Assembly (NCBI RefSeq): GCF_036365525.1
Contig: NC_090403.1
Coordinates: 26,297,461-26,361,460 of the forward strand
Length of the DNA: 64,000 nucleotides
DNA from: Heterodontus francisci
Lineage: Eukaryota
Reading direction: 5' to 3'
The position numbers and the translations under genes are program-made. This document shows, in pieces, positions 5,796 to 59,011 of the stretch (positions within the stretch are counted from its first letter, which is position 1; every line of letters starts with the position of its first letter). The notes beneath the pieces are model-generated. The model was not told the origin of the DNA. It saw only the letters and a list, made by a program, of their open reading frames with translations, and made no database searches.

Positions 5796-8700
5796 TCAGT
5801 TTCTTCTTCTGATTTTTGCTGTTATAACAAGGATCTGTTGTAAACAGGCTCTGGTCTCAGTGCGGATTATTTCCCAGGCACAGTCACTGAATATCTGAAG
5901 GAAGGAAATATTCGGGAAAATCCATTAGAGAATCAATAGATTTAAATGGGGTGAAATGAACTAAATGCTAGTAATTACACAGAAAATACCAATTGTCCCA
6001 CCTTCTGTTTGAGAAACTTTTCCAGTTTCCTGAAGTATTTGTGAATGGCAGTCTTGCTCCTGGGCTTGGACTCTGATCTCAATTTCCAGACACATTCTTC
6101 CAGCTCTCCGAGTTGCCGATCGAGGAGAAGACGAAAGTTTTCCACCTTGTCTCGGGGCCATGTAACTGAGCCCAGGTTCATGCTGTAGATCTTGTTGATG
6201 TGACGCAGGGTTTGATGGACAATCTGGATGCTGTCCTGGGCCTGTGCACAATAGACACAATGACATTAGAGGGGGTCTTATACCTTTTCGGTTTAAAGTA
6301 GTTATGGAAAGGAACAAGGAATAGGTCAACAGTAAATAAGCAACGGGAGGCTTTAATAGTGAAGACATCTTGGGTACAGACTGGGTTCATTCCTATGAAG
6401 CAGTAAGTAAGGACATGCAAAAATTCGAGCTCCGTGGATAGAGAGCTTAAATAGATAGTGAAAAGGAAGGCTTCTCATAAATATTAGGCTCATAATAACG
6501 TGGGGAACGAAGCTGAATATAAACAGTGCAGAGAAGAACTATCAAAGAAATGAGGGGCAGAGTGCAGAGAAAATAGACTAGCTGCAAACATAAAAGGGAA
6601 GCTACAAATCTTTTACAAGCATGTAAAGGGAAAGAAGGGTTAGTAATTAGTGGCCGGAAAAGCAATTTTCTTCTGGAGCAGGGGGTACAGCTGAGGATCT
6701 AAATGATTAATTTGCACGTGTCTTCACTAAATAGGATGGTTCGAATATCACAGTAAAGATGGGTGTTTGGCAGAGGTGGAGGTAGAAGAAAAATTGGATA
6801 GGGTGAAAATAGATACAGAGGAGGTAGTTAAAAGATTGATAGCACTCTAAGTAGGAAAGTCACCCGGTCTGGATAGAATATGTCTCAGGTTGCTGAGGAA
6901 AGTAAGTGCTGAAATAATGGAAGTTCTGGCCACAATTTTCCAGTCCTCCTCAGATGTGAGAGTGATGCCAAAGGACTGGAAGTTTTCTTCCTGTTCAAAA
7001 AAGAAAGAGGGTAAACTTGACAACCACAGGCCAGTTCGCCCTTCATGGGTGGCGGGAAGTTTGTCGACACTATTTTTCCAAGGTAAAAGGAATTGTCACT
7101 TACCAAAATATGACTTAGTAAATGTCAACCAGTAAAAATTTGTTAAGGTAAAATCATGTTGCCTAACTTGATTGAGTTATTGTATCAAGTAGCAGAAAGG
7201 ATTGCTGAGGGAGGTGTGGTGATTGTTGTGTATGTAGATCTTCAAAATATCTGTATACGGATTTGCTGAATTGATGGTGAAAAAATTCAATAATAGGTTT
7301 GAAAGGGAAATTGAGTAAATAGTTGAAGAGGAAAGGTTTGCATGGCTATGGGAAATAGTGAGGGGAGTGGGAATAATTGGATAATTCATTCAAAGAGCCT
7401 GCACAAGCATGATGAGCCACATGGCCTCTTCTGTACCATTCAATGATTCTATGACGTAACCTGCCCTGATGGTGCAAACCACACAGCCAATCACTGTAGC
7501 TCAGGAGTGAGATGGTTAGAGGGAGGCAGATTGTTACATTGTGTAAGATGAATGGGTGAGTTTAAATAATTGGAGGAAGTGAGATGATGAGAAGCAAAGT
7601 AATTTGACAAGATTCATGGTTAACATAGATGGAGGTTGTGAAATGGTTAAAAGAATGATTAGGGGACACTGGCGTACTGATAATGTTACTTGAATACTAA
7701 TTCAGACGCCAGGAAAAAGCTCTGGGAACATGAGTCCAAATCCCACCAGAGTGGCTGGTGGAAATTAAATTTAATTATTAAATCTGCGGTTAAAAGCTAG
7801 TCTCATTTATGGTTACCATGAAACTATTGGATTGTCAATAGAAACACATCTATTTCATCATTGCCAAATCTACTGTCCTTACCTGGTCTGGCCTACATGT
7901 GACTCCAGACCTGACTCTGAAAGGGCCTAGCAAGCCATTCAGTTGTATCAAACCACTGTAGAAAAGTTGAATAAGAATAAAACTTGACAGATTGACCACA
8001 GCACCAGAAATGACAATGTCAGACTCTGACCAGTCAACCCTACAAAATCCTCCTTACTATTTATCTGGGGACCTGTGCCAAAATAAAGAGAACTGTCCCA
8101 CAGACTGCACAAGTTTGCCTGGCAGATTCATACTCACTGAATCATACCATACAGCTATTGTCCCAGACTACTCCATCATCATCGCAATGGGACAAGATAT
8201 ACCCACCAGAAGTAGTTGCACAGTATTAAACAGTGGGGAGGGAGTGTGCTCAACATTGACTCCAGACCCCATGAATTCTTACACCATCAGGCCAAACATG
8301 GGCAAGGAAATCACCTGCTGATTACCACCTAAAACCTCCCTCAGACGATCAAACTTGCTCTGCCACACAATAAGATCATGGCTGATCCGATTGTGACATT
8401 AACTCCACTTTCCTCCCTTAACCAGCACCACCCCCATATCTCTTGACTCCCCAGTAGATCAAAAATCTGTCTAACTCAGCCTTGAATATGTTCGGTGAAT
8501 CAACCACCACTGCTCTCTGGGGAAGAGAATTCCAAATATTAAAGACCCTCTGAGAGAAGAAAGACCTCCTCGTTTCCATCTTAAAAAGAGACTCCTTATT
8601 TTAAAATTGTGCCCCCTTGTCTATCTCATGAAGAAAAACATCCTGTCAGCATCTACGCTGTCAAGCCCCCTCAGAATATTATATGTTTCAATGAGATCAC

Positions 8701-11700
8701 CTCTCATTCTTCTAAACTCCAATGAATATAGACCCAACCTCATCAACCTTTCCTCATAAGACAACCCTTTCATCCTAGGAATCAGCCCAGAGAGCTTTTG
8801 CTGAACTGCTTCCAATGCATGTATATCCCTCAGATGATGAATCAGTACTCCTTCATGTTTAACACCACTTTGAGGAAGCAGTGTGGGTCGTAATGGCACT
8901 GAATGTACTCTTGGTGGAGAACCTCAATGCCCATCACCAAGAGTGGCTCAGTAGCAGCACTACTGACCGAGCTAGTCCAGTCCTGATAGATGTAACATCC
9001 AGACTGGGCCTGCAGCAAGTGGTGATGATCCAGGAAAAAGGAAATTTGCCTGACATCGCCCTCACCAAGCGACCTGTTGCAGATGCATCTGTCCATGACA
9101 GTATTGGTAGGAGTGAGTACCACATAGTCCTTATGGAGATGATGTCCTATCTTCACTCTGAGGATACTGTCCATTGTGTGCAATGGCACGACCACGGTGC
9201 TAAATGGGATACATTCAGGACAGATCTAGCAGCTGTAAACTGGGCATCCATGAGGCACTGTGAGCCATCAGCAGCAGCAGAATTGTATTCAATCACACTC
9301 TGTAACTGCATGGCCTGACATACCCCTCACTCGACCATCACCATCAAGCCAGAGGATCAGACCTGGTTCAATGAGGAGTTTAAGAGAGCAAGCCAGGAGC
9401 AGCACCAGGGATATCTAAAAATGAGATATCAACCTGGTGAAGCTACCACACAGGACAACATGCATGTTAAACAGCAGAAGCAGCATGCCATAGAGCTAAG
9501 AGATCCCACACCAATGGATCAGATCAAAGCTCTGCAGCCCTGCCACATCCAGTTGTGTGTGGTGGTGGACAATTAAACAACTGACAGGAGGAAAAGGCTC
9601 CACAAACATCCCCAGTGTCAATGCTGAGGGAGCCCAGAACATTAGTGCAAAAGACAAGGCTAAAGTATTTGCATCCATCTTGGCCTCCTCGTGAGGTCCC
9701 CAGCATCATAGATGCAAATCTTCAACCAATTCAATTCACTCCACGTGATATCAAGAAATGGCTGAAGGGACAGGATACAGCAAAGGCTATAGGGCCTGAC
9801 AACATCCTGGCAGTAGAATTGAAGACTTGTTCTCCAGAATAAGCTGCACCCTTAGCCAAGCTTTTCCAGTACAGCTACAACATTGCGATCTACCCAACAA
9901 AGCAGAAAATTGCCCAGGTGTGTCATGTGCACAAAAGACAGTTCAAATCCAATCTGGCCAATTTCCATCCCATCAGTCTGCTCTCGATCATCAGCAAAGT
10001 GCTGGAGGGTGTGGTCAACAGTTCTATCAAGTGGCACTTACACAGCAATAACCTGTTCACTGATGCACAGTTTGGGTTCCAACAGGGCTATCCAGCTCCA
10101 GGCCTCATAATAGCCTTTGTCCAGACATGGACAAAAGGGCTGAATTCAAGTGGTAAGATGAGAGTGACTGACTTGACATCAAGGCAGCATTTGACTGAGT
10201 GTGGAATCAAAGAGCCCTAGCAAAATTGAAGTCAATGTGAATCAGGGGGTAAACTCTTCATTGATTGGAGTCATACCTAGAACAAATGAAGATGATTGTG
10301 GTTGTTGACAGCCAAACATCTAAGCCCCAGGACATCGCTGCAGGAGTTTCACAGGTTAATGTCCCAGACCTAACCATCTTCAGCCGCTTCATCAATGACC
10401 TTCCCACCATCAGAAGCTCAGAAGTGGGAATGTTCACTGATGACGTTATTCAGTACCAACCGTGACTCCTCAGGTACTCAAGCAGTTCATCTCCACCTGC
10501 AGCAAGAGCTGAACAACATTCAGGCTTCGGCTGATAAGTGACAAGTAACATTCATGACCACAAGTGCCAAGCAATGACCATCTCCAACAAGAGAGAATCT
10601 AACCATCTCCACTTGATATTCAACAACATTACCATCACTGAATATCCCACTATCAACATCCTGAGGGTTATCATTGACCAGAAACTTAACCGGACCAGTC
10701 ATATAAATACTGTGGCAACAAGAGCAGCTCAGAGGCTGGTAATTCTGCGGGAGTAATTCACCTCCTGACTCCCCAATGCCAGTCCACCACCTACAAGGCA
10801 CAAGTCAGGAATGTGATGGAATACTCTCCACTTGCCTGGATGAGTGCAGCTCCAACAACACTCAAGATGCTCGACACCATCCAGGACAAAGCAGCCCAAT
10901 TGATTGACACCTGATCCAACACCTTCAACATTCTCTCCCTCCACCAGCATTGCAGTGTGTAACTTGTACAAGATGCACTGCAGCAAATCACCAAGAATTC
11001 TTCGACAGCACTTTCCAAAGCTGCAACCTCTACCACAGCAGCTGCTTGGCAACACTATCACCTGCGTGTTCCCCTCCAAGCTACAAACCATCCTGACTTG
11101 GGAGTATATCGCCGTTCCTCCACTGTTAGAATTAAGGAGAAAGTAAGTGCTGTCATTGTGAGTGATATAGTTAGTGAGTGAATGACTGAGTAGTTCTGCT
11201 GTCCTTCTCACACCAATGGGCGGAAAACACTGGATTTAAATTTCCTGGTGTTGAAATTTCTGATCAGGTTGATGATCTTACTCATACTCTCAATAAAACT
11301 CCAGTTCGAATAAAATAAACCCAGTGTTCACTCACCTCGAATCCCTTCGAAAGTTTCATCAGGTTCAAGGGCTTAGTTTTCAGCGAGAGCCTCTGTTTTA
11401 CACAGTGTCGAGGAAAGGGACCGCCCTGAGAGGAGATAACAATCACTGTTACAATCAGCCCCAGAAACTGAAATACTACAGAATCACTGACTATTAATTA
11501 GCAAAATTATAAACTGCAAACTATTTCTCCAAATATGGCTTTTCACAACAAACAAACCCTGTGTGGTCCGGTTATGGTTCTGAATGTGTTTTAAACTCAC
11601 CATTTCATTCAGTTTGCTCAGAGTCTCTGTGTTGAGAACTTGCTGTAACTGCAACCTCTCACAGCCCAGACTCAGGGTCCCGGGCAACAAGACCAACACC

Positions 11701-11732
11701 ATCCAAAATCTCCAAACACTGGGCAAAGCCAT
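5796..11732 (-). CDS. ifn1: Type I interferon, copy 1 (4 exons, 186 aa)
   Basis: Exons 11732-11601, 11425-11336, 6241-6002, 5894-5796, all GT-AG and phase 0. Protein: MALPSVWRFWMVLVLLPGTLSLGCERLQLQQVLNTETLSKLNEM|GGPFPRHCVKQRLSLKTKPLNLMKLSKGFE|AQDSIQIVHQTLRHINKIYSMNLGSVTWPRDKVENFRLLLDRQLGELEECVWKLRSESKPRSKTAIHKYFRKLEKFLKQK|IFSDCAWEIIRTETRACLQQILVITAKIRRRN*. Shows a signal peptide, MGGxFPxxC, YFxKLxxFL and CAWE type I IFN motifs. Confidence 0.95.
6380..7450 (+). mobile_element. Old, degenerate CR1-like LINE fragment in IFN intron 2 (repeated in every unit)
   Basis: Frameshifted RT-like remnants (KSPGLDRICxRLLRKVSAEIMEVLATIFQSSxDxxVMPKDWK; GKSCxxNLIE; VVYVDLQ). Boundaries approximate. Confidence 0.75.
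7670..11127 (+). mobile_element. Degenerate L2/CR1-group LINE with a SINE-like 5' segment in IFN intron 2
   Basis: EN remnants (LNAHHQEWL, HDSIGRSEYH) and RT remnants (KAIGPDNI, NFHPISLLSIISKVLE, QFGFQQG, GVSQ...FINDLP, MFTDD) with many stops and frameshifts. Boundaries approximate. Confidence 0.85.
8350..8825 (-). mobile_element. CR1-like 3' fragment nested in the older LINE (repeated in every unit)
   Basis: Reads ALEAVQQKLSGLIPRMKGLSYEERLxRLGLYSLEFRRMRGDLIETY. Flanked by a TSD-like repeat TCCCTCAGA(C/T)GAT at 8337-8349 and 8826-8838. Confidence 0.85.
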
Positions 11733-11830
11733 CCCAAGCGACCCAGAGTAAAACACTGATCTGAAGGATGAGTAACCGACGGCTTCGATGTTCAGCGCCA
11801 AAACGCGTCTTGTTCACTGACTTAAACTGT

Positions 11831-12772
11831 GAAAGTGGAATTGCAGCCGATTCTGATCCAGGAGCGACCGTCTGTGTTGCTGAATGGTGTGAGAGTGCGG
11901 CTGGATTCTGCTGGGATCTCTCACTGACACTGCCATGCTGTCGGATTTAATGTGTGGGATTACATTCGAAAAGTGAAAATATTCTGCAGGATTTTTGGAG
12001 TTTGTGCTATTTCTTTCTGATGTAAGGAATCGAAAAGCTGGAGAGTCCAGAGGCAGCAACTGGAAAATCCCCGGTAGAAAAACATTGAACCAGCTCTCGA
12101 TTCCAGTTCAACGTTGTGTGGGTTCAGATCACCGGGGCATGAAGGGAGAGTCTGTATTGGGGGGAGTGTGAACATGTATTGGGGGCTGTATTTTATAATC
12201 CGGGTTTAGAGAGACACTGACAGCGGTAATCCGGTGCCGCGGCTTTTAATGCTGACATTCGGCTCCAGAAAGAGCGATTCCCTTTTAAATCCATTCTCTC
12301 CCCGGTGTGCTCACATCGCGCTTTTACTGTTCACACTTCGCAGGTTGGACATTGCAGAGATCCCGGGTCACAGCCCAGGGTCACCGCTTGATGCCGAATG
12401 TCACCGCTCGGATTCACCTGTCGGAGAATCTGCTCTTTAAGTGGAAGAAGTTTGTCATTTCTGGGCTCTTTTCTGCGGTCATTTTCAGAGTTTGTTTGAA
12501 AGAAAATTTAATCTGCTTCGACTCTGAGTCCCAAAGTGATCCCGCTCCCTTTTCCTTCATCATTTCTTTCTTGTCTCCCTCCCGGGAAAGTGTCCGTGTC
12601 AGTTTCTCTGTGGAAATGAACCTTGTGTCAATTACATCGAAAGTGAAAGTGCCTCAGGGAAAGTGACGAGTTTTGTCATTTCCGAAAGGGAGGAGAGTTT
12701 GTAAACAGAGCGGGTCACACTGAGAGGGCTGAGGGGGAGCTGCAACAGGGTTTGGGATATCCGGGATATCCC
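11831..12772 (-). promoter_or_regulatory. IFN copy 1 upstream region with IRF-E/ISRE and NF-kB-like sites
   Basis: GAAAGTGGAA 11831-11840; GAAAAGTGAAAA 11968-11979; GGGATTTTCC (minus) at 12062-12071; TATAAAA (minus) 12191-12197; GAAAGTGAAAGT 12639-12650; tandem GGGATATCC/GGGATATCCC 12754-12772. TSS not determinable from sequence. Confidence 0.72.
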
Positions 12773-12905
12773 CGATTCCAAAGGGAATGTCACAAAATCA
12801 ATCTCATCTGAAACTGTGATCAAAAAATTCCGTCCGGGTGGATGTGGGACTGAGATCCCACGAGCACCAGCTTTAGACGGGAGAAAAACTGCAATTTAGA
12901 ATAAT

Positions 12906-13260
12906 TTTTTACTGATTAGATTAGAGATACAGCACTGAAACAGGCCCTTCGGCCCACCGAGTCTGTGCCGAACATCAACCACCCATTTATACTAATCCTA
13001 CACTAATCCCATATTCCTACCAAACATCCCCACCTGTCCCTATATTTCCCTACCACCTACCTATACTAGTGACAATTTATAATGGCCAATTTACCTATCA
13101 ACCTGCAAGTCTTTTGGCTTGTGGGAGGAAACCGGAGCACCCGGAGTAAACCCACGCAGACACAGGGAGAACTTGCAAACTCCACACAGGCAGTACCCGG
13201 AATCGAACCCGGGTCCCTGGAGCTGTGAGGCTGCGGTGCTAACCACTGCGCCACCCTGAT
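12906..13260 (-). mobile_element. V-SINE (tRNA-derived, shark HE1-like), unique to unit 1
   Basis: A box TGGCGCAGTGG, B box GGTTCGATTCC, V-domain-like TGTGTGGAGTTTGCA...CTCCGGTTTCCTCCCACA, 3' tail GGGCCGAAGGGCCTGTT shared with the CR1. The empty site (ataatgctgatgg) is seen in the three other units. Confidence 0.9.
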
Positions 13261-14231
13261 GCTGATGGTAACAGGATAATGGTGAATAAAACTGTAGGAA
13301 TTGTAAATAGTTTCGAATGGAGGCGGAAGGAGGGTTAGGGAATTTAAGGAGGAATGTTTAAAACACTGGTGGGTAACATAATAGGAAGTAGCAAGGACTC
13401 TTAGCAGCGCGTCCATTATAATCTTACACCGTGCCTTTATCATTCTGCATAATTGGACTTCCGAATGTCAACATCTTGTCACCCCATTGGGGTAGAGATT
13501 CCGCTTTGTAGGAATTCATGGGGAGAGCAAATAGATGGGGTTGTCCCCAATTTTGCCTCATTGCGCTCCGAACGAAATTGTATGTTTTGAGATCTTGTTC
13601 TCGAGTTTCCGCTCAAATTCGTTTGCCAATCCCCAAACGCAAAATCTGCCATGAACCAACAAATCGGTCAGGGATTTCAAATGTAGTTTTAATAAAACTG
13701 CCTTAAAATGTTCGATTAGATATTTAAGAGTGGAAACAGTTGCAGTTTGATTCATACAGCAGAAAATGGATTTATCACAAAAAGTAAACATTTTAAATGA
13801 CACTATCAATCCTGCACCTGTGAGATTTTAAATAACTGAAATTGGCATTTTAAAATATATAGGCCCATTTGTTAGTTTTATTTGGGTGCAATAGTCATTT
13901 TCTTCGTAAAGTAAACTTGCCGAATCTTGTCCTTATTGCCCAAATGAAGCACTTTAAGATTTGGATCCTCCGGAGAGGCCTGCAATTACAATGGTGATTA
14001 ATTTATCCTGGCAATAAAGCCACTATTTTGGCACAACCAGCTTCCAGTGCAATCTTTTTTGTGAACTGGCGTTGAGAGTGGAAACTCAATTTGCCCTGGA
14101 CGTAATTTGCAGGTAACAGCGGGCAATCTTTCACAGTTATTTCACTGACTTTGGGTGAGTTGCACTGAGAAAACCAGGACAAATAGTCATGTGGTAAGTA
14201 CAGAACTTGTGAACTGCTGAAAATAGAGACA

Positions 14232-14271
14232 TATTGTGGAAGCTTTTGGTCTTGCACTCATCAGGACAACA
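14232..14271 (-). ncRNA. Degenerate hammerhead motif (GAAA core changed to CAAA)
   Basis: TGTTGTC-CTGATGA-GT gcaag AC-CAAA-AGCT-TC-CACAATA. Homologues at 25898-25937, 40366-40405 and 52171-52210. Confidence 0.65.
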
Positions 14272-15298
14272 GGCAAGAATAACCAATGAAAGGGGAAACA
14301 ACAACTTATTCTGTTTGAGAACAGAGTGCTGATTGGTTGGTAAGTGAAATCTGATTGGTGGAGGCTTTGCCACGGAGCATGCACCAGTTTATGGTGACTG
14401 ACAGTTAACTGTCAAGCTTTGTTTGAAATTTAAACCAGGCAGCTTGACTGTGGTTGGTCAAGGCATTTCTCTGAGGAATGAACCAGCAAATGGCTGAAAC
14501 AGCGGCAATGTGTGTACATGTTCATTCTGTGTGCAACCAACAGAACCCTGTGTAATAAGGTATGTAGCTTCCAGTACACACAAATGCGCCACACTGTGAG
14601 CCCGACTGACAATCTTCAATTAGTTGTCAGTGTAATTCTTAGCATACTGCGGATTATTTAGCAAATGTTGTCCAATTGCAGAATCACATCTAATGTTGGA
14701 CTCTGTGTTCTGAGTTTTGCAACCAAGGGCTGGTTGGTTACGGCCTGTCCGTTGCCTGCTGCAAACAGTGGAAGGGACATGTTGTTTGATACAATTCACC
14801 AGTCTTTGGGATGTACAGCCTAAATACTAAGCATCACACTGGCATTGAAATTCATACATCACACAACTCACGTTGTGCGATAGGCAGGATGATGTTTGCC
14901 TTGACAGCAGCATCAGGTTAGTGGTGAACACCATGCGTGTTGCTACTGCATAGCGAACTTTACCTGTTGATCAATGTTTTGGGATACATTACCTCCAGGG
15001 TAATTTGAGGTAGACTGGGCATTTCTCATGGCCACAAATGATGGCCTTACGCACGTTTCTATGTTTCCGTGATTTCCAGTGAGAAATGATCTGATTAGGG
15101 TCACCAATGTCACACAGGATTTCATTGATTCACCCTATTTCAGCATCAAGCTTGCATGGTGAGCAAATGGCTCGGGCCCAATTTACGAGGTTGACCATGA
15201 AGTCAATCTTATAGCGCGTGGAACTGTAGGAATCCCAATGCGTGTATTGAACAATGAAGTATAAGATGTTGTTTTCCCTTACATTGGTTATTCCTGCG

Positions 15299-15338
15299 TG
15301 TTGTCCTGATGAGTGCAAAATGAAAAGCTTCGACAACA
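15299..15338 (+). ncRNA. Minimal type I hammerhead ribozyme motif
   Basis: Identical to 455-494. Confidence 0.8.
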
Positions 15339-23371: not shown

Positions 23372-23469
23372 CCCAAGCGACCCAGAGTAAAACACTGATC
23401 TGAAGGATGAGTAACCGACGGCTTCGATGTTCAGCGCCAAAACGCTTCTTGTTCACTGACTTAAACTGT

Positions 23470-24259
23470 GAAAGTGGAAATGCAGCCGATTCTGATCCAG
23501 GAGCGACCGTCTGTGTTGCTGAATGGTGTGAGAGTGCGGCTGGATTCTGCTGGGATCTCTCACTGACACTGCCATGCTGTCGGATTTAATGTGTGGCATT
23601 ACATTCGAAAAGTGAAAATATTCTGCAGGATTTTTGGAGTTTGTGCTATTTCTTTTTGATGTAAGGAATCGAAAATCTGGAGACTCCAGAGCCAGCGACT
23701 GGAAAATCCCCGGTAGAAAAACATTGAACCAGCTCTCGATTCCAGTTCAATGTTGTGTGGGTTCAGATCACCGGGGCATGAAGGGAGAGTCTGCATTGGG
23801 GGGAGTGTGAACATGTATTGGGGCTGTATTTTATAATCGGGTTTAGAGAGACACTGACAGCGGTAATCCGGTGCCGCGGCTTTTAATGCTGACATTCGGC
23901 TCCAGAAAGAGCGATTCCCTTTTAAATCCACTCTCTCCCCGGTGTGCTCACATCGCGCTTTTCCTGTTCACACTTCGCTTGTTTGAAAGAAAATTTAATC
24001 TGCTTCGACTCTGAGTCCCAAAGTGATCCCGCTCCCTTTTCTTTCATCATTTCTTTCTTGTATCCCTCCCGGGAAAGTGTCCGTGTCAGTTTCTCTGTGG
24101 AAATGAACCTTGTGTCAATTACATCGAAAGTGAAAGTGTCTCAGGGAAAGTGACGAGTTTTGTCATTTCCGAAAGGGAGGAGAGTTTGTAAACAGAGCGG
24201 GTCACACTGAGAGGGCTGAGGGGGAGCTGCAACAGGGTTTGGGATATCCGGGATATCCC
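23470..24259 (-). promoter_or_regulatory. IFN copy 2 upstream region (IRF-E and kB-like sites; 150-bp deletion)
   Basis: Same motifs as copy 1. The proximal site reads GAAAGTGGAAA. Deletion junction at 23978/23979. Confidence 0.7.
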
Positions 24260-46500: not shown

Positions 46501-49500
46501 TATAGACCCAACCTCCTCAACCTTTCCTCATAAGACAACCCTTTCATCCTCGGAAACAGCCCAGAGAGCATTTGCTGAACTGCTTCCAATGCATGTATAT
46601 CCCTCAGATGATGAATCAGCACTCCTTCATGTTTAACACCACTTTGAGGAAGCAGTGTGGGTCGTAATGGCACAGAATGTACTCTTGGTGGAGAACCTCA
46701 ATGCCCATCACCAAGAGTGGCTCAGTAGCAGCACTACTCACCGAGCTGGTCCAGTCCTGATGGATGTAACATCCAGACTGGGCCTGCAGCAAGTGGTGAT
46801 GATCCAGGAAAAAGGAAGTTTGCCTGACATCATCCTCACCAAGCGACCTGTTGCAGATGCATCTGTCCATGACAGTATTGGTAGGAGTGAGTACCACATA
46901 GTCCTTATGGAGGTGATGTCCTGTCTTCACTCTGAGGATACTGTCCATTGTGTGCAATGGCACTACCACGGTGCTAAATGGGATACATTCAGGACAGATC
47001 TAGCAGCTGAAAACTGGGCATCCATGAGGCACTGTGAGCCATCAGCAGCAGCAGAATTGTATTCAATCACACTCTGTAACTGCATGGCCTGACATATCCC
47101 TCACTCGACCATCACCATCAAGCCAGAGGATCAGACCTGGTTCAATGAGGAGTTTAAGAGAGCAAGCCAGGAGCAGCACCAGGGATACCTAAAAATGAGA
47201 TATCAACCTGGTGAAGCTACCACACAGGACAACATGCATGTTAAACAGCGGAAGCAGCATGCCATAGAGCTAAGAGATCCCACACCAATGGATCAGATCA
47301 AAGCTCTGCAGCCCTGCCACATCACGTTGTGTATGGTGGTGGACAATTAAACAACTAACAGGGGGAAAAGGCTCCACAAACATCCCCAGTGTCAATGTTG
47401 GGGGAGCCCAGAACATTAGTGCAGAAGACAAGGCTAAAGTATTTGCATCCATCTTGGCCTCCTCGTGAGGTCCCCAGCATCATAGATGCAAATCTTCAAC
47501 CAATTCAATTCACTCCACGTGATTTCAAGAAATGGCTGAAGGGACAGGATACAGCAAAGGCTATAGGGCCTGACAACATCCTGGCAGTAGAATTGAAGAC
47601 TTGTTCTCCAGAATAAGCTGCACCCTTAGCCAAGCTTTTCCAGTACAGCTACAACATTGCGATCTACCCAACAAAGCAGAAAATTGCCCAGGTGTGTCAT
47701 GTGCACAAAAGACAGTACAAATCCAATCTGGCCAATTTCCATCCCATCAGTCTGCTCTCGATCATCAGCAAAGTGCTGGAGGGTGTGGTCAACAGTTCTA
47801 TCAAGTGGCACTTACACAGCAATAACCTGTTCACTGATGCACAGTTGGGGTTCCAACAGGGCTATCCAGCTCCAGGCCTCATAATAGCCTTGGTCCAAAC
47901 ATGGACAAAAGGGCTGAATTCAAGTGGTAAGATGAGTGACTGACTTGACATCAAGGCAGCATTTGACTGAGTGTGGCATCAAAGAGCCCTAGCAAAATTG
48001 AAGTCAATGGGAATCAGGGGGTAAACTCTTCATTGATTGGAGTCATACCTAGAACAAATGAAGATGATTGTGGTTGTTGACAGCCAAACATCGAAGCCCC
48101 AGGACATCGCTGCAGGAGTTTCACAGGTTAATGTCCCAGACCTAACCATCTTCAGCCGCTTCATCAATGACTTTCCCACCATCAGAAGCTCAGAAGTGGG
48201 AATGTTCACTGATGACGTTATTCAGTACCAACCGTGACTCCTCAGGTACTCAAGCAGTTCATCTCCACCTGCAGCAAGAGCTGAACAACATTCAGGCTTC
48301 GGCTGATAAGTGACAAGTAACATTCATGACCACAAGTGCCAAGCAATGACCATCTCCAACAAGAGAGAATCTAACCATCTCCACTTGATATTCAACAACA
48401 TTACCATCACTGAATCTCCCACTATCAACATCCTGAGGGTTATCATTGACCAGAAACTTAACAGGACCAGTCATATAAATACTGTGGCAACAAGAGCAGC
48501 TCAGAGGCTGGTAATTCTGCGGGAGTAATTCACCTCCTGACTCCCCAATGCCAGTCCACCACCTACAAGGCACAAGTCAGGAATGTGATGGAATACTCTC
48601 CACTTGCCTGGATGAGTGCAGCTCCAACAACACTCAAGATGCTCGACACCATCCAGGATGAAGCAGCCCAATTTATTGACACCTGATCCAACACCTTCAA
48701 CATTCTCTCCCTCCACCAGCATTGCAGTGTGTAACTTGTACAAGATGCACTGCAGCAAATCACCAACAATTCTTAGACAGCACTTTCCAAAGCTGCAACC
48801 TCTACCACAGCAGCTGCTTGGCAACACTATCACCTGCGTGTTCCCCTCCAAGCTACAAACCATCCTGACTTGGGAGTATATCGCCGTTCCTCCACTGTTA
48901 GAATTAAGGAGAAAGTAAGTGCTGTCATTGTGAGTGATGTAGTTAGTGAGTGAATGACTGAGTAGTTCTGCTGTCATTCTCACACCAATGGGCGGAAAAC
49001 ACTGGATTTAAATTTCCTGGTGTTGAAATTTCTGATCAGGTTGATGATCTTACTCATACTCTCAATAAAACTCCAGTTCGAATAAAATAAACCCAGTGTT
49101 CACTCACCTCGAATCCCTTCGAAAGTTTCATCAGGTTCAAGGGCTTGGTTTTCAGCGAGAGCCTCTGTTTTACACACTGTCGAGGAAAGGGACCGCCCTG
49201 AGAGGAGATAACAATCACTGTTACAATCAGCCCCAGAAACTGAAATACTACAGAATCACTGACTATTAATTAGCAAAATTATAAACTGCAAACTATTTCT
49301 CCTGATATGGCTTTTCACAACAAACAAACCCTGTGTGGTCCGGTTATGGTTCTGAATGTGTTTTAAACTCACCATTTCATTCAGTTTGCTCAGAGTCTCT
49401 GTGTTGAGAACTTGCTGTAACTGCAACCTCTCACAGCCCAGACTCAGGGTCCCGGGCAACAAGACCAACACCATCCAAAATCTCCAAACACTGGGGAAAG

Positions 49501-49504
49501 CCAT
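43571..49504 (-). CDS. ifn1: Type I interferon, copy 4 (4 exons, 186 aa)
   Basis: Exons 49504-49373, 49197-49108, 44016-43777, 43669-43571; intact. Differs from copy 1 by L3F (signal peptide), H51Q, L121M, K137N. Confidence 0.95.
44154..48899 (+). mobile_element. Intron 2 block of decayed LINEs (nested inverted CR1 at about 46124-46599)
   Basis: Collinear with 6380-11127. Confidence 0.8.
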
Positions 49505-49602
49505 CCCAAGCGACCCAGAGTAAAACACTGATCTGAAGGACGAGTAACCGACGGCTTCGATGTTCAGCGCCAAAACGCTTCTTGTTCACTGACTTAAACT
49601 GT

Positions 49603-50532
49603 GAAAGTGGAATTGCAGCCGATTCTGATCCAGGAGCGACCGTCTGTGTTGCTGAATGGTGTGAGAGTGCGGCTGGATTCTGCTGGGAACTCTCACTGAC
49701 ACTGCCATGCTGTCGGATTTAATGTGTGGCATTACATTCGAAAAGTGAAAATATTCTGCAGGATTTTTGGAGTTTGTGCTATTTCTTTTTGATGTAAGGA
49801 ATCGAAAATCTGGAGAGTCCAGAGCCAGCGACTGGAAAATCCCCGGTAGAAAAACATTGAACCAGCTCTCGATTCCAGTTCAATGTTGTGTGGGTTCAGA
49901 TCACCGGGGCATGAAGGGAGAGTCTGTATTGGGGGGAGTGTGAACATGTATTTTATAATCCGGGTTTAGAGAGACACTGACAGCGGTAATCCGGTGCCGC
50001 GGCTTTTAATGCTGACATTCGGCTCCAGAAAGAGCGATTCCCTTTTAAATCCACTCTCTCCCCGGTGTGCTCACATGGCGCTTTTCCTTTTCACACTTCG
50101 CAGGTTGGACATTGCAGAGACCCCGGGTCACAGCCCAGGATCACCGCTTGATGCCGAATGTCTCCGCTCGGATTCACCTGTCGGAGAATCTGCTCTTTAA
50201 GTGGAAGAAGTTTGTCATTTCTGGGCTCTTTTCTGCGGTCATTTTCAGAGTTTGTTTGAAAGAAAATTTAATCTGCTTCGACTCTGAGTCCCAAAGTGAT
50301 CCCGCTCCCTTTTCTTTCATCATTTCTTTCTTGTCTCCCTCCCGGGAAAGTGTCCGTGTCAGTTTCTCTGTGGAAATGAACCTTGTGTCAATTACATCGA
50401 AAGTGAAAGTGCCTCAGGGAAAGTGACGAGTTTTGTCATTTCCGAAAGGGAGGAGAGTTTGTAAACAGAACGGGTCACACTGAGAGGGCTGAGGGGGAGC
50501 TGCAACAGGGTTTGGGATATCCGGGATATCCC
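49603..50532 (-). promoter_or_regulatory. IFN copy 4 upstream region (IRF-E and kB-like sites; 12-bp deletion beside the TATA-like motif)
   Basis: Same motifs as copy 1. Reads aacatgtattttataatc versus aacatgtattgggggctgtattttataatc in copy 1. Confidence 0.7.
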
Positions 50533-51248
50533 CGATTCCAAAGGGAATGTCACAAAATCAATCTCATCTGAAACTGTGATCAAAAACTTCCGTCCGGGTG
50601 GATGTGGGACTGAGATCCCACGAGCACCAGCTTTAGCCGGGAGAAAAACTGCAATTTAGAATAATGCTGATGGTAACAGGATAATGGTGAATAAAACTGT
50701 AGGAATTGTAAATAGTTTCGAATGGAGGCGGAAGGAGGGTTAGGGAATTTAAGGAGGAATGTTTAAAACACTGGTGTGTAACATAATAGGAAGTAGCAAG
50801 GACTCTTAGCAGCACGTCCATTATAATCTTACTCTGTACCTTTATCATTCTGCATAATTGGACTTCCTAATGTCAACATCTTGTCACCCCATTGGGGTAG
50901 AGATTCCGCATTGTAGGAATTCATGGGGAGAGCAAATAGATGGGTTTATCCCCAATTTTGCCTCATTGCGCTCCGAACGAAATTGGATGTTTTGAGATTT
51001 TGTTCTCGGGTTTCCGCTCAAATTCGTTTGCCAATCCCCAAACGCAAAATCTGCCATGAGCCAACAAATCGGTCAGGGATTTCAAATGTATTTTTAATAA
51101 AACTGCCTTAAAATGTTCGATTAGATATTTAAGAGTGGAAACAGTTGCAGTTTGATTCATACAGCAGAAAATGGATTTATCACAAAAAGTAAGCATTTTA
51201 AATGACACTATCAATCCTGCACCTGTGAGATTTTAAATGACTGAAATT

Positions 51249-51778
51249 AAGAACAAAGAACAAAGAAAATTACAGCACAGGAACAGGCCCTTCGGCCCTC
51301 CAAGCCTACGCCGATCCAAATCCTCTCTCTAAACCTGTCGCCTATTTTCTAAGGGTCTGTATCTCTTTACTTCCTGCCCATTCATGTATCTGTCTAGATA
51401 CATCTTAAAAGACGCTATCGTGCCCGCGTCTACCACCTCCGCTGGCAAAGCGTTCCATGCACCCACCACCCTCTGCGTCAAGAAATTTCCACGCATATCC
51501 CCCCTAAACTTTTCCCCTTTCACTTTGAACTCGTGTGCCCTTGCAATTGAATCCCCCACTCTGGGAAAAAGCTTCTTGCTATCCACTCTGTCTATACCTC
51601 TCATGATTTTGTACACCTCAATCAGGTCCCCCCTCAACCTCTGTCTTTCTAATGAAAATAATCCTAATCTGCTCAACCTCTCTTCATAGCAAGCGCCCTC
51701 CATACCAGGCAACATCCTGGTGAATCTCCTCTGCACCCTCTCCAAAGCATCCACATCCTTTTGGTAATGTGGCGACCA
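51249..51778 (-). mobile_element. 5'-truncated CR1 (530 bp)
   Basis: Same insertion as 24976-25505, with the same AAATT TSD. Confidence 0.95.
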
Positions 51779-52138
51779 AAATTGGCATTTTAAAATATAT
51801 AGGCCCATTTGTTAGTTATATTTGGGTGCAATAGTCATTTTCTTCGTAAAGTAAACTTGCCGAATCTTGTCCTTATTGCCCAAATGAAGCACTTTAAGAT
51901 TTGGATCCTCCGGAGAGGCCTGCAATTACAATGGTGATTAATTTATCCTGGCAATAAAGCCACTATTTTGGCACAACCAGCTTCCAGTGCAATTTTTTTT
52001 CTAAACTAGCGTTGAGAGTGGAAACTCAATTTGCCCTGGACGTAATTTGCAGGTAACAGCGGTCAATCTTTCACAGTTATTTCACTGACTTTGGGTGAGT
52101 TGCACTGAGCAAACCAGGACAAATAGTCATGTGGTAGT

Positions 52139-53287
52139 ACAGAACTTGAGAACTGCTAAAAATAGAGACATATTGTGGAAGCTTTTGTTCTTGCACTCAT
52201 CAGGCCAACAGGCAAGAATAACCAATGTAAGGGGAAACAACAACTTATTCTGTATGAGAACAGAGTGCTGATTGGTTGGCAAGTGAAATCTGATTGGTAG
52301 AGGCTTTGCCATGGAGCATGCACCAGTTTATGGTGACTGACAGTTAACTGTCAAGCTTTGTTTGAAATTTAAACCAGGCAGCTTGACTGTGGTTGGTCAA
52401 GGCATTTCTCTGAGGAATGAACCAGCAAATGGCTGAAACAGCGGCAATGTGTGTACATGTTCATTCTGTGTGCACCGAACAGAAACCTGCGTAATAAGAT
52501 ATGTAGCTTCCAGTACACACAAATGCGCCACACTGTGAGCCCGACTGACAATCTTCAATTAGTTGTCAGTGTAATTCTTAGCACACTGCGGATTATTTAG
52601 CAAATGTTGTCCAATTGCAGAATCACATCTAATGTTGGACATTGTGTTCTGAGCTTTGCAACCTAGGGCTGGTTGGTTACGTCCTGTACGTTGCCTGCTG
52701 CAAACAGTGGAAGGGACAATTCACCAGTCTTTGGGATATACAGCCGAAATACTAAGCATCACACTGGCATTGAAATTCATACATCACACAACTCACTTGT
52801 GTGATAGGCAGGATGATGTTTGCCTTGACAGCAGCATCAGGTTAGTGGTGAACACCATGCGTGTTGCTACTGCATAGCGAACTTTACCTGTTGATCAATG
52901 TTTTGGGATACATTACCTCCAGGGTAATTTGAGGTAGACTGGGCATTTCTCAGGGCCACAAATAATGGCCTTACGTACGTTTCTATGTTTCCGTGATTTC
53001 CAGTGAGAAATGATCTGATCAGGGTCACCAATGTCACACAGGATTTCATTGATTCACCCTATTTCAGCATCAAGCTTGCATGGTGAGCAAATGGCTCGGG
53101 CCCTATTTACGAGGTTGACCATAAAGTCAATCTTATAGCGCGTGGAACTGTCGGAATCCCAATACTTGTATTGAACAATGAAGTATAAGATGTTGTTTTC
53201 CCTTACATTGGTTATTCCTGCGTGTTGTCCTGATGAGTGCAAAATGAAAAGCTTCGACAACATATCTCTATTTTAAGCAATTCTCAA
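52139..53287 (-). mobile_element. Penelope-like retroelement remnant with inverted terminal repeats
   Basis: Near-identical to 25865-27014. Confidence 0.83.
53223..53262 (+). ncRNA. Minimal type I hammerhead ribozyme motif
   Basis: Identical to 455-494. Confidence 0.8.
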
Positions 53288-54805
53288 AAACTAGGACAAG
53301 CGAGCGGAAAGTCCTCTTTGCTTTTTGTTAATTCTAAATTCCTATCCACCATTTATTTTGAGACTTGCATTATAAAATTGATGGTCTGAGTGCATAAAAC
53401 AAGGCACTTCAGATGAAAAGAGGTAGAAATTATGATGTCACTTCGTGGGTGGGAGACAAAGGAATGAATAGAGGGTCGATGGAATGTTCGGGATGCAAAG
53501 CGGCAATAAACTGAACCATTTGGTCGCTGCGTAAAAGATAATGGGAGATTGACTAACAATTTAGGTGAAGCTGTTTGTCAGCATTTATCATTGTAAATTG
53601 CTATGTTAGCATTTGAAATCCAATTTTGACATGGCAACTGCCAAACTGCCATGATATAATTGCAGCCTTTGGTCATAAGGTTGCTCTTTCCATATCTTCC
53701 TATTATTCGCTTGGAGAGAATAGTGCGAACGAATGGGAGGATTTGCAGGATTTTTAACAGTCTGACAAATGGCGTCTTGAGCATTCCTTCCAGGGCCATA
53801 AACATACCAATTGACAGATTGATCAGTCCAAGACAACAGGAGTGTATTATAGGCTCTCATAAACCATGCGGAGTATGGGGAATCCACTGGATACATGTGC
53901 ACACGTGGATGTCAACCCAGAATTCAGAACCAGAATTTGGACCCTCCATTGAGACACTCTGGGACATCCCATCCTCTGACCCGAGGCAGTACTCAAAATA
54001 CTAAGCCAAAGGTTCACTCCAGGCCCTGGCGTGATCCTGTGGAATAAGTCTCTGAAGTTTTCCAACATGCATAGAAAAAATGTATATTGATGAATTGACT
54101 GTGGACAAACCCAGGGGAAATGTATTCATAAGAAATGAGAGGATAGTCAGTGAAGGGCTGTGTGCACTTGTGGATGAATGAAGACTTGTGTTTGAACAAA
54201 TGGTAGAAATATTGAGATGAATACACAAAAGCAAGGATGAAGTGCATATCAGTGGACCAAAGGGAAGGGAGGATAAAAACAAGTAAGTGTGAATGACAGT
54301 AGAAAATACACCAGGTCCAGATCATATGCAATCTAAGAAACTATGAAATAAGGTCAATGAGAGAAAGAACAAATCATAATTTTCCAATCAACTTCAGAAA
54401 CAAGTATTGTGCCAAAGGATTGCAGGGTGGCAAGATATTAGACTTAATTCAACTGTATGTAACTCTATGGAGTCCATAGTATGGGGTGAAATAATTGAGA
54501 AGTCGGAGAAGCATGAGGGACAGTCAACACGAATCTGTAAATAATACTTGTGCTTGCAGAATACCGTTTAAGTTTTCAATAAGCTCACATACAAATCGAC
54601 AGAAATGCAATCAGTGTTAAAGATATAGATTTTCAGAAGGTGTAAGACACTCCCACTTTTCACTCATTCTCACTCATCACACCCATTGACTGATTTCCCC
54701 GTCTGTACTCTGTGTCAGATACTCCAGTCATCTCCTGCCGCCACCCATTCCTTTTCTCCGTCCATTTCCAATTGATGGCTTTATTTTGCCCTTTCCTGTT
54801 TAACA

Positions 54806-57705
54806 GGAACTGGTGGTCTGAGGTGTATTTGTTTTAATGCAAGAAGTGTAGTAGGTAAGGCAGATGAACTTAGGGCTTGGATTAGTACCTGGGAGTATGA
54901 TGTTATTGCTATTACTGAGACTTGGTTAAGGGAAGGGCATGATTGGCAACTAAATATCCCAGGATACCGATGCTTCAGGCGGGATAGAGAGGGAGGTAAA
55001 AGGGGGGGAGGAGTTGCATTACTGGTCAAAGAGGATATCACAGCTGTGCTGAAGGAAGGCACTAAGGAGGACTCGAGCTGTGAGGCAATATGGGCAGAAC
55101 TCAGAAATAGGAAGGGTGCGGTAACAATGTTGGGGCTGTACTATAGGCCTCCCAACAGCGAGCGTGAGATAGAGGTACAAATATGTAAACAGATTATGGA
55201 AAGCTGTAGGAGCAACAGGATGGTGGTGATAGGAGATTTTAATTTTCCCAACATTGACTGGGATTCACTTAATGTTAGAGGTCTAGATGGAGCAGAATTT
55301 GTAAGGAGCATCCAGGAGGGTTTTCTAGAACAGTATGTAAATAGTCCAACTCGGGAAGGGGCCATACTGGACCTGGTGTTGGGAAATGAGCCGAGCCAGG
55401 TGGTTGACGTTTCAGTAGGGGACTACTTTGGGAATAGTGATCACAATTCCGTAAGTTTTAGAATACTCATGGACAAAGACGAGAGTGGTCCTAAAGGAAG
55501 AGTGCTAAACTGGGGGAAGGCCAACTATACCAAAATTCGGCAGGAGCTGGGGAATGTACATTGGGAGCAGCTGTTTGAAGATAAATCCACTTTTGATATG
55601 TGGGAGGCTTTTAAAGAGAGGTTGATTAGCGTGCAGGAGAGACATGTTCCTGTGAAAATGAGGGGTAGAAATGGCAAGATTAGGGAACCATGGATGACAG
55701 GTGAAATTGTGAGACTAGCTAAGAGGAAAAAGGAAGCACACATAAGGTCTAGGCGGCTGAAGAAAGACGAAGCTTTGAAAGAATATCGGGATTGTAGGAC
55801 CAATTTGAAACGAGGAATTAAGAGGGCTAAAAGGGGTCATGAAATATCTTTAGCAAACAGGGTTAAGGAAAATCCCAAAGCCTTTTATTCATATATAAGG
55901 AGCAAGAGGGTAACTAGAGAAAGGATTGGCCCACTCAAGGACAAAGGAGGAAAGTTATGCGTGGAGTCAGAGAAAATGGGTGAGATTCTAAACGAGTACC
56001 TTGCATCGGTATTCACCGAGGAGAGGGACATGATGGATGTTGAGGTTAGGGACAGATGTTTGATTACTCTAGGTCAAGTCGGCATAAGGAGGGAGGAAGT
56101 GTTGGGTATTCTAAAAGGCATTAAGCTGGACAAGTCCCCAGGTCCGGATGGGATCTATCCCAGGTTACTGTGGGAAGCGAGAGAGGAAATAGTTGGGGCC
56201 TTAACAGATATCTTTGCAACATCCTTAAACACGGGTGAGGTCCCGGAGGACTGGAGAATTGCTAATGTTGACCCCTTGCTTAAGAAGGGTAGCAGGGAAA
56301 GTCCAGGTAATTATAGACCGGTGAGCCTGACGTCAGTGGTAGGGAAGCTGCTGGAGAAGATACTGAGGGATAGGATCTATTCCCATCTGGAAGAAAATGG
56401 GCTCATCAGTGATAGGCAACATGGTTTTGTGCAGGGAAGGTCATGTCTTACCAACTTAATAGAATTCTTTGAGGAAGTGACAAAGTTGATTGATGAGGGA
56501 AGGGCTGTAGATGTCATATACATGGACTTCAGTAAGGCGTTTGATAAGGTTCCCCATGGTAGGCTGATGGAGAAAGTGAAGGCGCATGGGGTCCAAGGTG
56601 TACTAGCTAGATGGATAAAGAACTGGCTGGGCAACAGGAGACAGAGAGTAGCAGTGGAAGGGAGTTTCTCAAATTGGAGACGTGTGACCAGTGGTGTTCC
56701 ACAGGGATCCGTGCTGGGACCACTGTTGTTTGTGAAATACATAAATGATTTGGAGGAAAGTATAGGTGGTCTGATTAGCAAGTTTGCAGACGACACTAAG
56801 ATTGGTGGAGTAGCAGATACTGAAGGGGACTGTCAGAGAATACAGCAGAATATAGATAGACTGGAGAGTTGGGCAGAGAAATGGCAGATGGAGTTCAATC
56901 AGGGCAAATGCGAGGTGATGCATTTTGGAAGATCCAATTCAAGAGTGAACTATACAGTAAATGGAAAAGTCCTGGGGAAAATTGATGTACAGAGAGATTT
57001 GGGTGTTCAGGTTCATTGTTCCCTGAAGGTGGCAACGCAGGTCAATAGAGTGGTCAAGAAGGCATACGGCATGCTTTCCTTCATCGGACGGGGTATTGAG
57101 TGCAAGAGTTGGCAGGTCATGTTACAGTTGTATAGGACTTTGGTTCGGCCACATTTGGAATACTGCGTGCCGTTCTGGTCGCCCCATTACCAAAAGGATG
57201 TGGATGCTTTGGAGAGGGTGCAGAGGAGGTTCACCAGGATGTTGCCTGGTATGGAGGGCGCTAGCTATGAAGAGAGGTTGAGTAGATTAGGATTATTTTC
57301 ATTAGAAAGACGGAGGTTGAGGGGGGACCTGATTGAGGTGTACAAAATCATGAGAGGTATCGACAGGGTGGATAGCAAGAAGCTTTTTCCCAGAGTGGGG
57401 GATTCAATTACAAGGGGACACGAGTTCAAAGTGAAAGGGGAAAAGTTTAGGGGGGATATCTGTGGAAAGTTCTTTACGCAGAGGGTGGTGGGTGCATGGA
57501 ACGCATTACCAGTGGAGGTGGTAGACGCGGGCACGATAGCGTCTTTTAAGATGTATCTAGACAGATACATGAATGGGCAGGAAGTAAAGAGATACAGACC
57601 CTTAGAAAATAGGCGACAGGTTTAGATAGAGGATCTGGATCGGCGTAGGCTTGGAGGGCCGAAGGGCCTGTTCCTGTGCTGTAATTCTCTTTGTTCTTTG
57701 TTCTT
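54806..57705 (+). mobile_element. CR1-clade LINE with uninterrupted ORF2; ORF1 absent
   Basis: ORF track gives 859 aa (55046-57625). It is called shorter only because the GTG start used in the other copies is GAG here; the frame is open upstream. Confidence 0.96.
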
Positions 57706-58565
57706 CTAACACCTCAGGCTTAATCCTCTCTCATTTGGAGTGCGGATATGAAGTTGAGAAAAGAGTGGAAAATCAGGTAAATTGGGTTTGAAATGGATTG
57801 ACAGCTTTGAGCAGTGAGGGAAAATCAGACAGCAGAGAGAGGAGACTTGAGCAGAGATTGTATCAGTAACAGACAGCAAGGAGAAAAATCCAGAGCATTT
57901 ATAGTGAGTATGGAAAACTGATCAACACAAATGAGAAATAGATATTATTCTTGTAAATGTGAATTTTTGAAAACAATTTATTTACACCAACATATGTTCA
58001 TTCAGTATAAAAGATTTCCAGTTTACAAAAACATTGTCTATCCCACAACTCTTAATAAATATCAATAAGTTAATTTTTAAACTCACTTTACACATTGTAT
58101 AACACTGTAACATTTCATTATGTGAACAAATCACAACAATAAATATCAATGAATTAGGATGAATTGAGATGGATTGTAGTTTGGGCTCTTTGGAGAGCAG
58201 AATTGTAAAGGTAGGTGAGACTCAGGGTTCATTGATCTGCAAGCCTACACCCTTGAAAGCCCAATAGTGCATTCAAAACCAGACTCCCCACAATGAGCCC
58301 TTTAGCATTTCATCACAGGAAATTATCACAGCAATAAATATAAATAAATTTAAATAAATAATTAAATATGAAACAATATTAAGCCAGTCATTCTTCTCTA
58401 TCGGTCATTTTGCTGCCAATGGCATCATTACAGCAATCCAATTACATTAAAATATTAAATAAAATAAATACTGTTGAATAAAATATATGTAGTTATACAT
58501 TTAAGGAATTTAAATTAAATATTTATTTTTTCCAGTCTGTACTGAAACATGTCTTTGGAAAGTCT

Positions 58566-59011
58566 TCAGTTTCTTCTTCTGATTTTTGCTGTTATCACAA
58601 GGATCTGTTGTAAACAGGCTCTGGTCTCAGTGCGGATTATTTCCCAGGCACAGTCACTGAATATCTGAAGGAAGGAAATATTCGGGAAAATCCATTAGAG
58701 AATCAATAGATTTAAATGGGGTGAAATGAACTACATGCTAGTAATTACACAGAATATACCAATTGTCCCACCTTCTGTTTGAGAAACTTTTCCAGTTTCC
58801 TGAAGTATTTGTGAATGGCAGTCTTGATCCTGGGCTTGGACTCTGATCTCAATTTCCAGACACATTCTTCCAGCTCTCCGAGTTGCCGATCGAGGAGAAG
58901 ACGAAAGTTTTCCACCTTGTCTCGGGGCCATGTGACTGAGCCCAGGTTCATGCTGTAGATCTTGTTGATGTGACGCAGTGTTTGATGGACAATCTGGATG
59001 CTGTCCTGGGC
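58566..59011 (-). CDS. ifn1: Type I interferon, copy 5, exons 3-4 only (exons 1-2 expected just beyond the window)
   Basis: Exons 59011-58772 and 58664-58566; intact, with S136I relative to copy 1. Confidence 0.9.

Follow-up and report, generated by a model that had tools for sequence, protein, structure and literature searches.

In Callorhinchus milii (elephant shark), a tandem cluster of three type I interferon (IFN) genes has been described, and the cartilaginous-fish form of such genes has four exons and three introns (PMC5332411). The type I IFN locus of rainbow trout comprises about forty open reading frames (PMC5127012), for which a link to retrotransposons has been mentioned (PMC5332411), and the human IFNA genes include conserved as well as species-specific “variant” subtypes that arose through duplication and conversion (PMC7850986). 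Lineage-specific IFN expansion in cartilaginous fishes and birth-death turnover have also been published (PMC6640115), the table of that study listing one partial catshark IFN1. Here we analyse 64,000 nt from Heterodontus francisci (assembly GCF_036365525.1, contig NC_090403.1, positions 26,297,461 to 26,361,460 of the forward strand; in the following “the window”), which carry five copies of a spliced type I IFN gene. In our judgement this is probably a functional tandem array of one shark type I IFN gene, in which an A-B dimer of repeat units was amplified, tracts are exchanged between copies, and the main effect is one of dosage.

The copies lie head-to-tail on the minus strand. Four are complete: copy 1 (5796..11732; exons 11601-11732, 11336-11425, 6002-6241 and 5796-5894, with introns of 175, 5094 and 107 bp), copy 2 (17438..23371; exons 23240-23371, 22975-23064, 17644-17883 and 17438-17536), copy 3 (32293..38223; exons 38092-38223, 37827-37916, 32499-32738 and 32293-32391) and copy 4 (43571..49504; exons 49373-49504, 49108-49197, 43777-44016 and 43571-43669). 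Copy 5 (58566..59011) is represented by exons 3 (58772-59011) and 4 (58566-58664), as the window stops within intron 2; from the offset in the self-comparison, its exon 2 is expected near 64,100, beyond the window end. Exons of 132, 90, 240 and 99 nt are separated by three phase-0 introns of 175, ~5,090 and 107 bp. No stop codon or frameshift interrupts any of the 18 visible exons, GT is found at 13 of 13 donors and AG at 14 of 14 acceptors, and the spliced product has 186 aa in each of the four complete copies. Exactly seven residues vary among the window copies (3, 51, 78, 121, 136, 137 and 177), and the complete copies differ from each other by 1-5 residues. A preliminary description of this DNA, made from its sequence alone, had proposed a head-to-tail array of five copies bounded by 5796 (the stop codon of copy 1) and 59011 (the start of exon 3 of copy 5), with canonical splice sites and a 186-aa protein varying at seven positions, and exon mapping agrees with it on each of these points. 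Its count of five intact genes applies to four of them, the fifth being cut in intron 2. It had also let the array leave the window at both ends, which is correct for the right end, where a gene is cut; the left end cuts only a spacer homologous to 26,496, and from unit homology we infer an additional gene to the left of the window.

Identification of the product as a type I IFN, previously suggested from the sequence, was borne out by the Pfam family Interferon (PF00143), which matches exon 3 (E=2e-11; 44.8 bits vs a cut-off of 26.8), and the fold and PDB matches agree. Exon 4 reaches 25.8 bits, slightly below the same cut-off, and the search returned no Pfam family for exons 1 and 2. The exon 3 sequence matches 17 PDB entries, interferons without exception, and neither IFN-gamma nor IFN-lambda occurs in the 23 PDB sequence matches or among the fold matches listed. 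A homolog search with exon 3 yielded 39 proteins, all from sharks or rays, and in a wider set 72 of 73 matches bear shark or ray names, the best being from H. francisci itself, in line with the cartilaginous-fish origin proposed earlier. The closest full-length match (P0002, H. francisci, 186 aa; 96% identity in exon 3) is an independent database gene model that belongs to a 9-member cluster; it differs from the four complete copies at 5-8 of 186 residues and has the same length, junctions and five-cysteine pattern. As its sequence is absent from the window copies, at least one further protein variant exists. Window copies and P0002 form one clade with a Shimodaira-Hasegawa (SH) support of 99, so that the lineage-specific amplification put forward in the preliminary description is upheld by phylogeny; their closest relatives are elasmobranch IFN1 proteins, in a tree without a holocephalan or bony-vertebrate outgroup.

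For P0002, whose identity to the window copies is 96-97%, a structure model was built (pLDDT 82); its helices lie at residues 27-44, 50-59, 66-70, 75-92, 104-126, 134-153 and 158-185. Down to rank 39, every Foldseek match listed for this model is a type I IFN, alone or in complex, the best being grass carp IFNa (E=2e-7, TM 0.77/0.89); its long-helix fold is nearer to type I IFNs than to IFN-lambda, IFN-gamma or the IL-10 family. Cysteines 24, 52, 124 and 159 align with cysteines of solved IFN-omega and IFN-alpha1, and the four conserved cysteines together with the CAWE motif that characterise type I IFNs are all present. Residues 1-23, a candidate signal peptide, are hydrophobic and lie ahead of the site aligned to the mature N-terminus. 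A fifth cysteine, Cys171, lies in the last helix (exon 4) in all window copies and is probably unpaired; this position is Arg in 30 of 52 aligned proteins. That Cys171 is unique to the window gene, as one of 39 matches had indicated at first, had to be abandoned: in the wider alignment it occupies 7 of 52 rows, of which four are window copies, and outside the window gene it occurs in one Stegostoma and one Heptranchias protein. With four exons, three phase-0 introns and the canonical intron 3 absent, the gene matches the four-exon form of cartilaginous fishes. The protein also resembles IFN1/6_cami of the elephant shark as judged by eye only; teleost and amphibian IFN-f sequences, the reference for the IFN-f-related cartilaginous-fish clade of Redmond et al. 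2019, did not occur among the homolog matches. No flanking genes were found within the 64-kb window.

The array is not a simple series of monomers. Nearly all of the window is one repeat, with 6-14 kb matches at 97-99% identity in a self-comparison, and the units alternate between type A (~15.0 kb) and type B (11.1-11.3 kb) with a dimer period of ~26.3 kb, a higher-order repeat whose structure and block mosaicism had both been missed in the preliminary description. Unit 1 (A, 1..12903, its left ~2.1 kb lying beyond the window) is followed by unit 2 (B, 11.1 kb, 13259..24390), unit 3 (A, 15.0 kb, 24391..39392), unit 4 (B, 11.3 kb, 39393..50663) and unit 5 (A, 50664..64000, cut at the window end). 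Units 2 and 4 diverge by 0.59%, units 3 and 5 by 0.99%, units 1 and 3 by 1.46% and units 1 and 5 by 1.61%, while A and B units are 2.22-2.69% apart and adjacent units 2.25-2.69%, so that next-but-one units are most alike. Alternation, next-but-one likeness and incompatible tracts, each looked for as a sign of a higher-order array under unequal exchange, were all found. The A units carry a 3.2-kb segment on the plus strand (1778..4980, 28274..31477 and 54547..57750) with a non-LTR retrotransposon (a long interspersed nuclear element, LINE) encoding endonuclease and reverse transcriptase. A second A-unit marker, 533 bp long and inverted, comes from the 3' part of an element of that LINE family; it lies on the minus strand (24976..25508, and again 51249-51781; 96% identity) and is seen in units 3 and 5, the equivalent position of unit 1 being beyond the window. 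Both are lacking from the B units. At the protein level, L121M and K137N are fixed differences between the A copies (1, 3, 5) and the B copies (2, 4).

The 8,013 columns common to the five units contain 315 two-state sites, of which 168 are common to two units, and nine small indels were listed. Across the whole array, transitions about equal transversions, in shared (79/89) and private (75/72) variants alike. Sequencing error, considered as a source of the divergence because of this ratio of ~1, was rejected: as the substitution balance is the same in shared and private sites, the divergence is real.

Within units 1-4, the 113 informative sites fall into the patterns 13|24 (100 sites), 14|23 (11) and 12|34 (2), and these are strongly clustered (7 runs vs 24.4 expected, P=1e-5), 13|24 extending to copy-1 position 10,400 and 14|23 running from 11,120 to 12,652. 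Between copies 2 and 3, the stretch from exon 2 through exon 1 into the upstream region shows 0/397 and 2/1,018 differences, vs 2-3.6% for the spacer and for most of intron 2, and their longest identical run spans 22826-23978 in copy 2. The copy 2 block at 22975..24390 (minus strand), made up of exons 2 and 1 with their upstream sequence, is near-identical to the copy 3 block at 37827-39392. Copy 3 therefore combines an A-type 3' half with a 5' block held in common with its B-type neighbour. The break is located in intron 2, and the tract that starts there would have been moved by conversion or unequal crossover, the alternative being a switch error in the assembly.

The same boundary is found across shark orders. 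We aligned 48 named near-full-length proteins from the 73 matches (the unnamed P0055 was left out), and approximately unbiased (AU) tests were run on 32 shark proteins plus copy 1, after dropping rays, the divergent paralog P0061 and the frameshift-looking model P0039. One subtype, for which we use our own label QDC after its signal-peptide junction, is present in all six shark orders sampled, and trees of the full protein and of exons 1-2 recover it as a single clade (SH 94-100). For exon 3, the AU test rejects a monophyletic QDC subtype (p=2e-5; 5e-9 under a mixture model; 2e-6 once carpet sharks are removed). Exons 1 to 4 contain 12, 4, 0 and 0 subtype-diagnostic columns, and 1, 0, 12 and 1 residues that are common across subtypes inside one order (the exon-1 count is partly circular). 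The two subtypes of Heptranchias differ at 31/74 residues in exons 1-2 vs 5/80 in exon 3. Between orders, the difference is 0.25-0.30 in exon 3 vs 0.24-0.43 in exons 1-2, a comparable divergence, so the similarity of exon 3 is not mere slowness. As far as these protein alignments go, exons 1-2 keep an ancient subtype identity and exon 3 groups by lineage. We are fairly sure that the sequence mosaic itself, in the window and across sharks, is genuine.

A second Heterodontus paralog, P0004, differs from the window copies at 2 of 44 residues in exon 1 and 11 of 30 in exon 2, which suggests an exon-1 exchange between the two non-QDC subtypes in the Heterodontus lineage. Two ray models (P0001 and P0040) have duplicated exon 2-3 segments or excess length; they are probably chimeric predictions spanning tandem copies, and a warning on automatic models at such loci.

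Coding variants among the copies comprise 7 nonsynonymous and 7 synonymous changes, for which 435 and 123 sites are available, respectively (one-sided test of constraint, P=0.02), and by this count the coding sequence is under purifying selection; positive selection among copies was considered and is unsupported, there being no nonsynonymous excess. The predicted 3' untranslated region of copy 1 (5200..5795, minus strand, with AATAAA at 5212) is rich in ATTTA (10 in 600 nt vs 3.4 expected, P=0.001). Its upstream region (11733..12903, minus strand) contains interferon regulatory factor (IRF)-element-like sites at 11970 and 12640 and NF-kB-like sites at 12062-12071 and 12763-12772, all of them candidates found with consensus motifs. 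These sites are retained in copies 2-4. Three of the five IRF/NF-kB patterns are enriched upstream of copy 1 (P=0.002, 0.004 and 0.017), and none of ten motif tests was enriched in two control regions; whole-window motif counts are inflated by the repeat and were therefore used for positions only. The interval 12586-12772 forms a second IRF-/NF-kB-like cluster ~0.9-1.0 kb upstream of the start codon, which could be a distal promoter; two promoter regions are known from teleost IFNa genes (PMC5127012). Upstream regions differ by up to 2.7% between copies, and in addition there are private deletions in copy 2 (150 bp, after 23978) and copy 4 (12 bp, after 49951) that may alter the promoter. The deletion in copy 4 adjoins a TATA-like sequence (copy-1 position ~12195).

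These observations can be combined into the following scenario. The A and B units would go back to an early duplication and carry the gain or loss of LINEs as their mark, and the A-B dimer would later have been multiplied via unequal crossing-over. Tracts would still be swapped among the copies; as one break falls within the 5-kb intron 2, promoter and exons 1-2 would move apart from exons 3-4. When a virus is sensed, the IRF and NF-kB sites in the upstream region of every copy would be activated, and each copy would give rise to an AU-rich, short-lived mRNA that encodes a secreted helical cytokine with disulphide bonds, acting on IFNAR1/IFNAR2. As the proteins differ by so few residues, the main effect would be more of one interferon rather than new specificities. 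Both this dosage effect and copy-number variability of the array are plausible from the sequence.

Several points weigh against this interpretation. The 14 coding variants show constraint on the gene lineage, not selection for extra copies, and a single assembled sequence underlies what we say on copy number and dosage. Two of the five upstream motif patterns are without enrichment (P=0.24 and 0.17), one of the enriched patterns was picked post hoc, and a single palindrome enters the NF-kB count twice. Of the 11 sites with pattern 14|23, four stem from one small misaligned indel; the direct comparison of copies 2 and 3 stands without them. In the cross-species comparison, which uses automatic gene models, carpet sharks retain distinct exon-3 types (26/80), the subtype test on exon 4 alone is not significant (p=0.09), and neither are the reverse clade tests on mature exons 1-2 (p=0.13 and 0.08). 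Finally, once the 5' block is set aside, the divergence between units 2 and 4 is only 0.50% (49/9715), and the LINE of units 1 and 3 differs at 4/3,203 positions (0.12%). Both values are near the nucleotide diversity of 0.2% reported for another shark (PMC10587355), so that part of the array could be allelic and there could have been a partial false duplication.

The closeness of units 2 and 4, and of the LINE in units 1 and 3, also fits an assembly artefact, in which both haplotypes of a shorter array would have been joined end to end and the mosaic would be a switch error between copies, near-identical tandem units being a known assembly hazard. We consider this improbable, as the three A units are all 0.99-1.61% apart, more than two alleles would provide, leaving at least three genes even under haplotype concatenation. 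Units 1 and 3, so alike in the LINE, differ by up to 4.2% in intron 2, a sixth protein variant (P0002, with its 9-member cluster) is not encoded in the window, and the same intron-2 boundary appears in other sharks.

If the copies are real, they might still have accumulated without need: the gene would be functional, extra copies would come from mis-pairing, and conversion would keep them intact regardless of their use. Such neutral, recombination-driven drift in copy number fits the long near-identical units, the passenger LINE copies and the private upstream deletions in copies 2 and 4, as well as the occurrence of multi-member clusters in different subtypes in different species, and birth-death turnover is a published model (PMC6640115). 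However, none of the five copies is broken, nonsynonymous change is in deficit and the IRF-/NF-kB-like sites are kept in all four visible upstream regions, and we regard drift as the whole explanation to be unlikely. Another possibility, an early subfunctionalisation by which the response is diversified because inducibility or receptor affinity is not the same in A and B copies, could build on the fixed L121M and K137N differences and on the divergence and deletions of the upstream regions; with 1-5 residue differences only, no nonsynonymous excess and 5' blocks swapped across the A/B divide, it appears improbable. A functional array acting through dosage remains the reading that we favour.

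A reason for the position of the boundary may be sought in the protein. In the P0002 model, exon 3 (residues 75-154) holds three helices, which by their order would correspond to helices C-E, and exons 1-2 would hold helix A and the AB loop. In mammals, helices C-E bind IFNAR1, and helix A, along with the AB loop plus helix F, makes up the IFNAR2 face. The elephant shark has two copies of IFNAR2 and one of IFNAR1 (PMC5332411), so selection could preserve the subtype differences of the 5' module and allow the 3' module to become uniform. We tentatively propose that shark IFN genes consist of two modules joined at a long recombinogenic intron 2: a 5' module (promoter and exons 1-2) that would keep its subtype across orders, and a 3' module (exon 3) that would be homogenised in each lineage, tracking the shared IFNAR1 while two IFNAR2 receptors separate the subtypes. 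Each lineage would amplify one subtype into a copy-variable array, and the window would catch the exchange in progress. The receptor-based reason for the mosaic is a hypothesis; exon 4, which encodes helix F of the IFNAR2 face, carries no subtype signal, and with this a purely physical boundary set by the long intron agrees at least as well.

Among the other features of the array, the LINE, which we take to be CR1-like, has unbroken frames of 949 codons on the plus strand in units 3 (28503-31352) and 5 (54776-57625), with the first Met at codon 118, and their products differ at 10 residues; the unit 1 copy (2007-4855) has a 1-bp frameshift near 4130. The 3.2-kb segment has ~45 extra bases past the LINE tail and no obvious target-site duplication, and B units may therefore have lost it by deletion. 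Decayed LINE fragments were detected by tblastn in unit 4. An insertion of 355 bp (12904..13258, minus strand), presumably SINE-like (a short interspersed nuclear element), is private to the junction of units 1 and 2 and its tail matches the LINE 3' end (51 bp, 82%); it is the most recent visible event in the array. A search of 1-26,500 against Rfam and of the whole window with ARAGORN gave no matches, including none for this insertion, Tandem Repeats Finder reported a single 35-bp AT-rich repeat only, and three other long open frames in intron 2 matched no Pfam family.

The preliminary description had called the array young and independent. Its youth is relative only: at a shark mutation rate of 7e-10 per generation (interval 1.4-14.1e-10, from another species; PMC10587355), a divergence of 0.59% corresponds to 4.2 (2.1-21) and one of 2.69% to 19 (9.5-96) million generations, and conversion resets the divergence clock. 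The amplification is lineage-specific; a claim of rarity is weakened by the four-exon structure, the elephant shark tandem cluster and the cartilaginous-fish expansion already published, and by database entries: among the 73 matches there are 11 named 90%-identity clusters from nine shark or ray species with 7-24 members each, counts that may reflect paralogs, isoforms, alleles or other species. The partial catshark transcript in the supplement of PMC6640115 has, by eye, the same exon-2 type as the window gene. A near-identical shark IFN array or an exchange of exon blocks was not described in the literature searched, including PMC8455134 and PMC13176653; this covers mostly non-subscription journals and excludes bioRxiv supplements. 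The array alone is an expected kind of immune-gene expansion; the intron-2-bounded mosaic, in the window and across shark orders, may be the part that specialists would not expect. What has been published on cartilaginous-fish IFNs draws on one genome, that of the elephant shark, and on a very small number of sequences from elasmobranchs, and the window with its database matches points to larger shark repertoires with quick turnover. If exons 1-2 and exon 3 have separate histories, whole-protein trees blend two signals, which bears on the open debate on concerted vs birth-death evolution and on the weak placement of sharks in vertebrate trees. The mosaic also connects exon boundaries with the cytokine's two receptor faces in a way that can be tested.

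Among the closest known systems is the elephant shark cluster at the growth hormone/CD79 locus, which likewise consists of tandem type I IFN genes with four exons and three introns (PMC5332411; IFN1/2/3/6_cami in the supplement of PMC6640115). There, IFN1_cami and IFN6_cami are a near-identical pair, nearer to the window protein than IFN4/5_cami (by eye, from the supplement of PMC6640115). However, the elephant shark has three or four mostly divergent genes, whereas the window holds at least five copies that are 97-99% identical over units of 11-15 kb and form a higher-order repeat. The elasmobranch “interferon alpha-like” database proteins, of which P0002 (not in the window) is nearest, have the same length, junctions and cysteines; these names are automatic and without subtype meaning, and as P0002 belongs to a 9-member cluster, automatic annotation already lists the family as multi-copy. 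The trout locus is similar in that type I IFN genes with introns have undergone a large tandem expansion and retrotransposons lie in the vicinity, and differs in its five-exon genes and six subgroups in a teleost, vs a four-exon gene of one subtype here. Human IFNA resembles the window in its near-identical within-species copies, in conversion and in IRF-driven promoters (candidate sites here); its genes are intronless and thus, unlike those of the window, have no long intron that could act as a boundary between 5' and 3' blocks.

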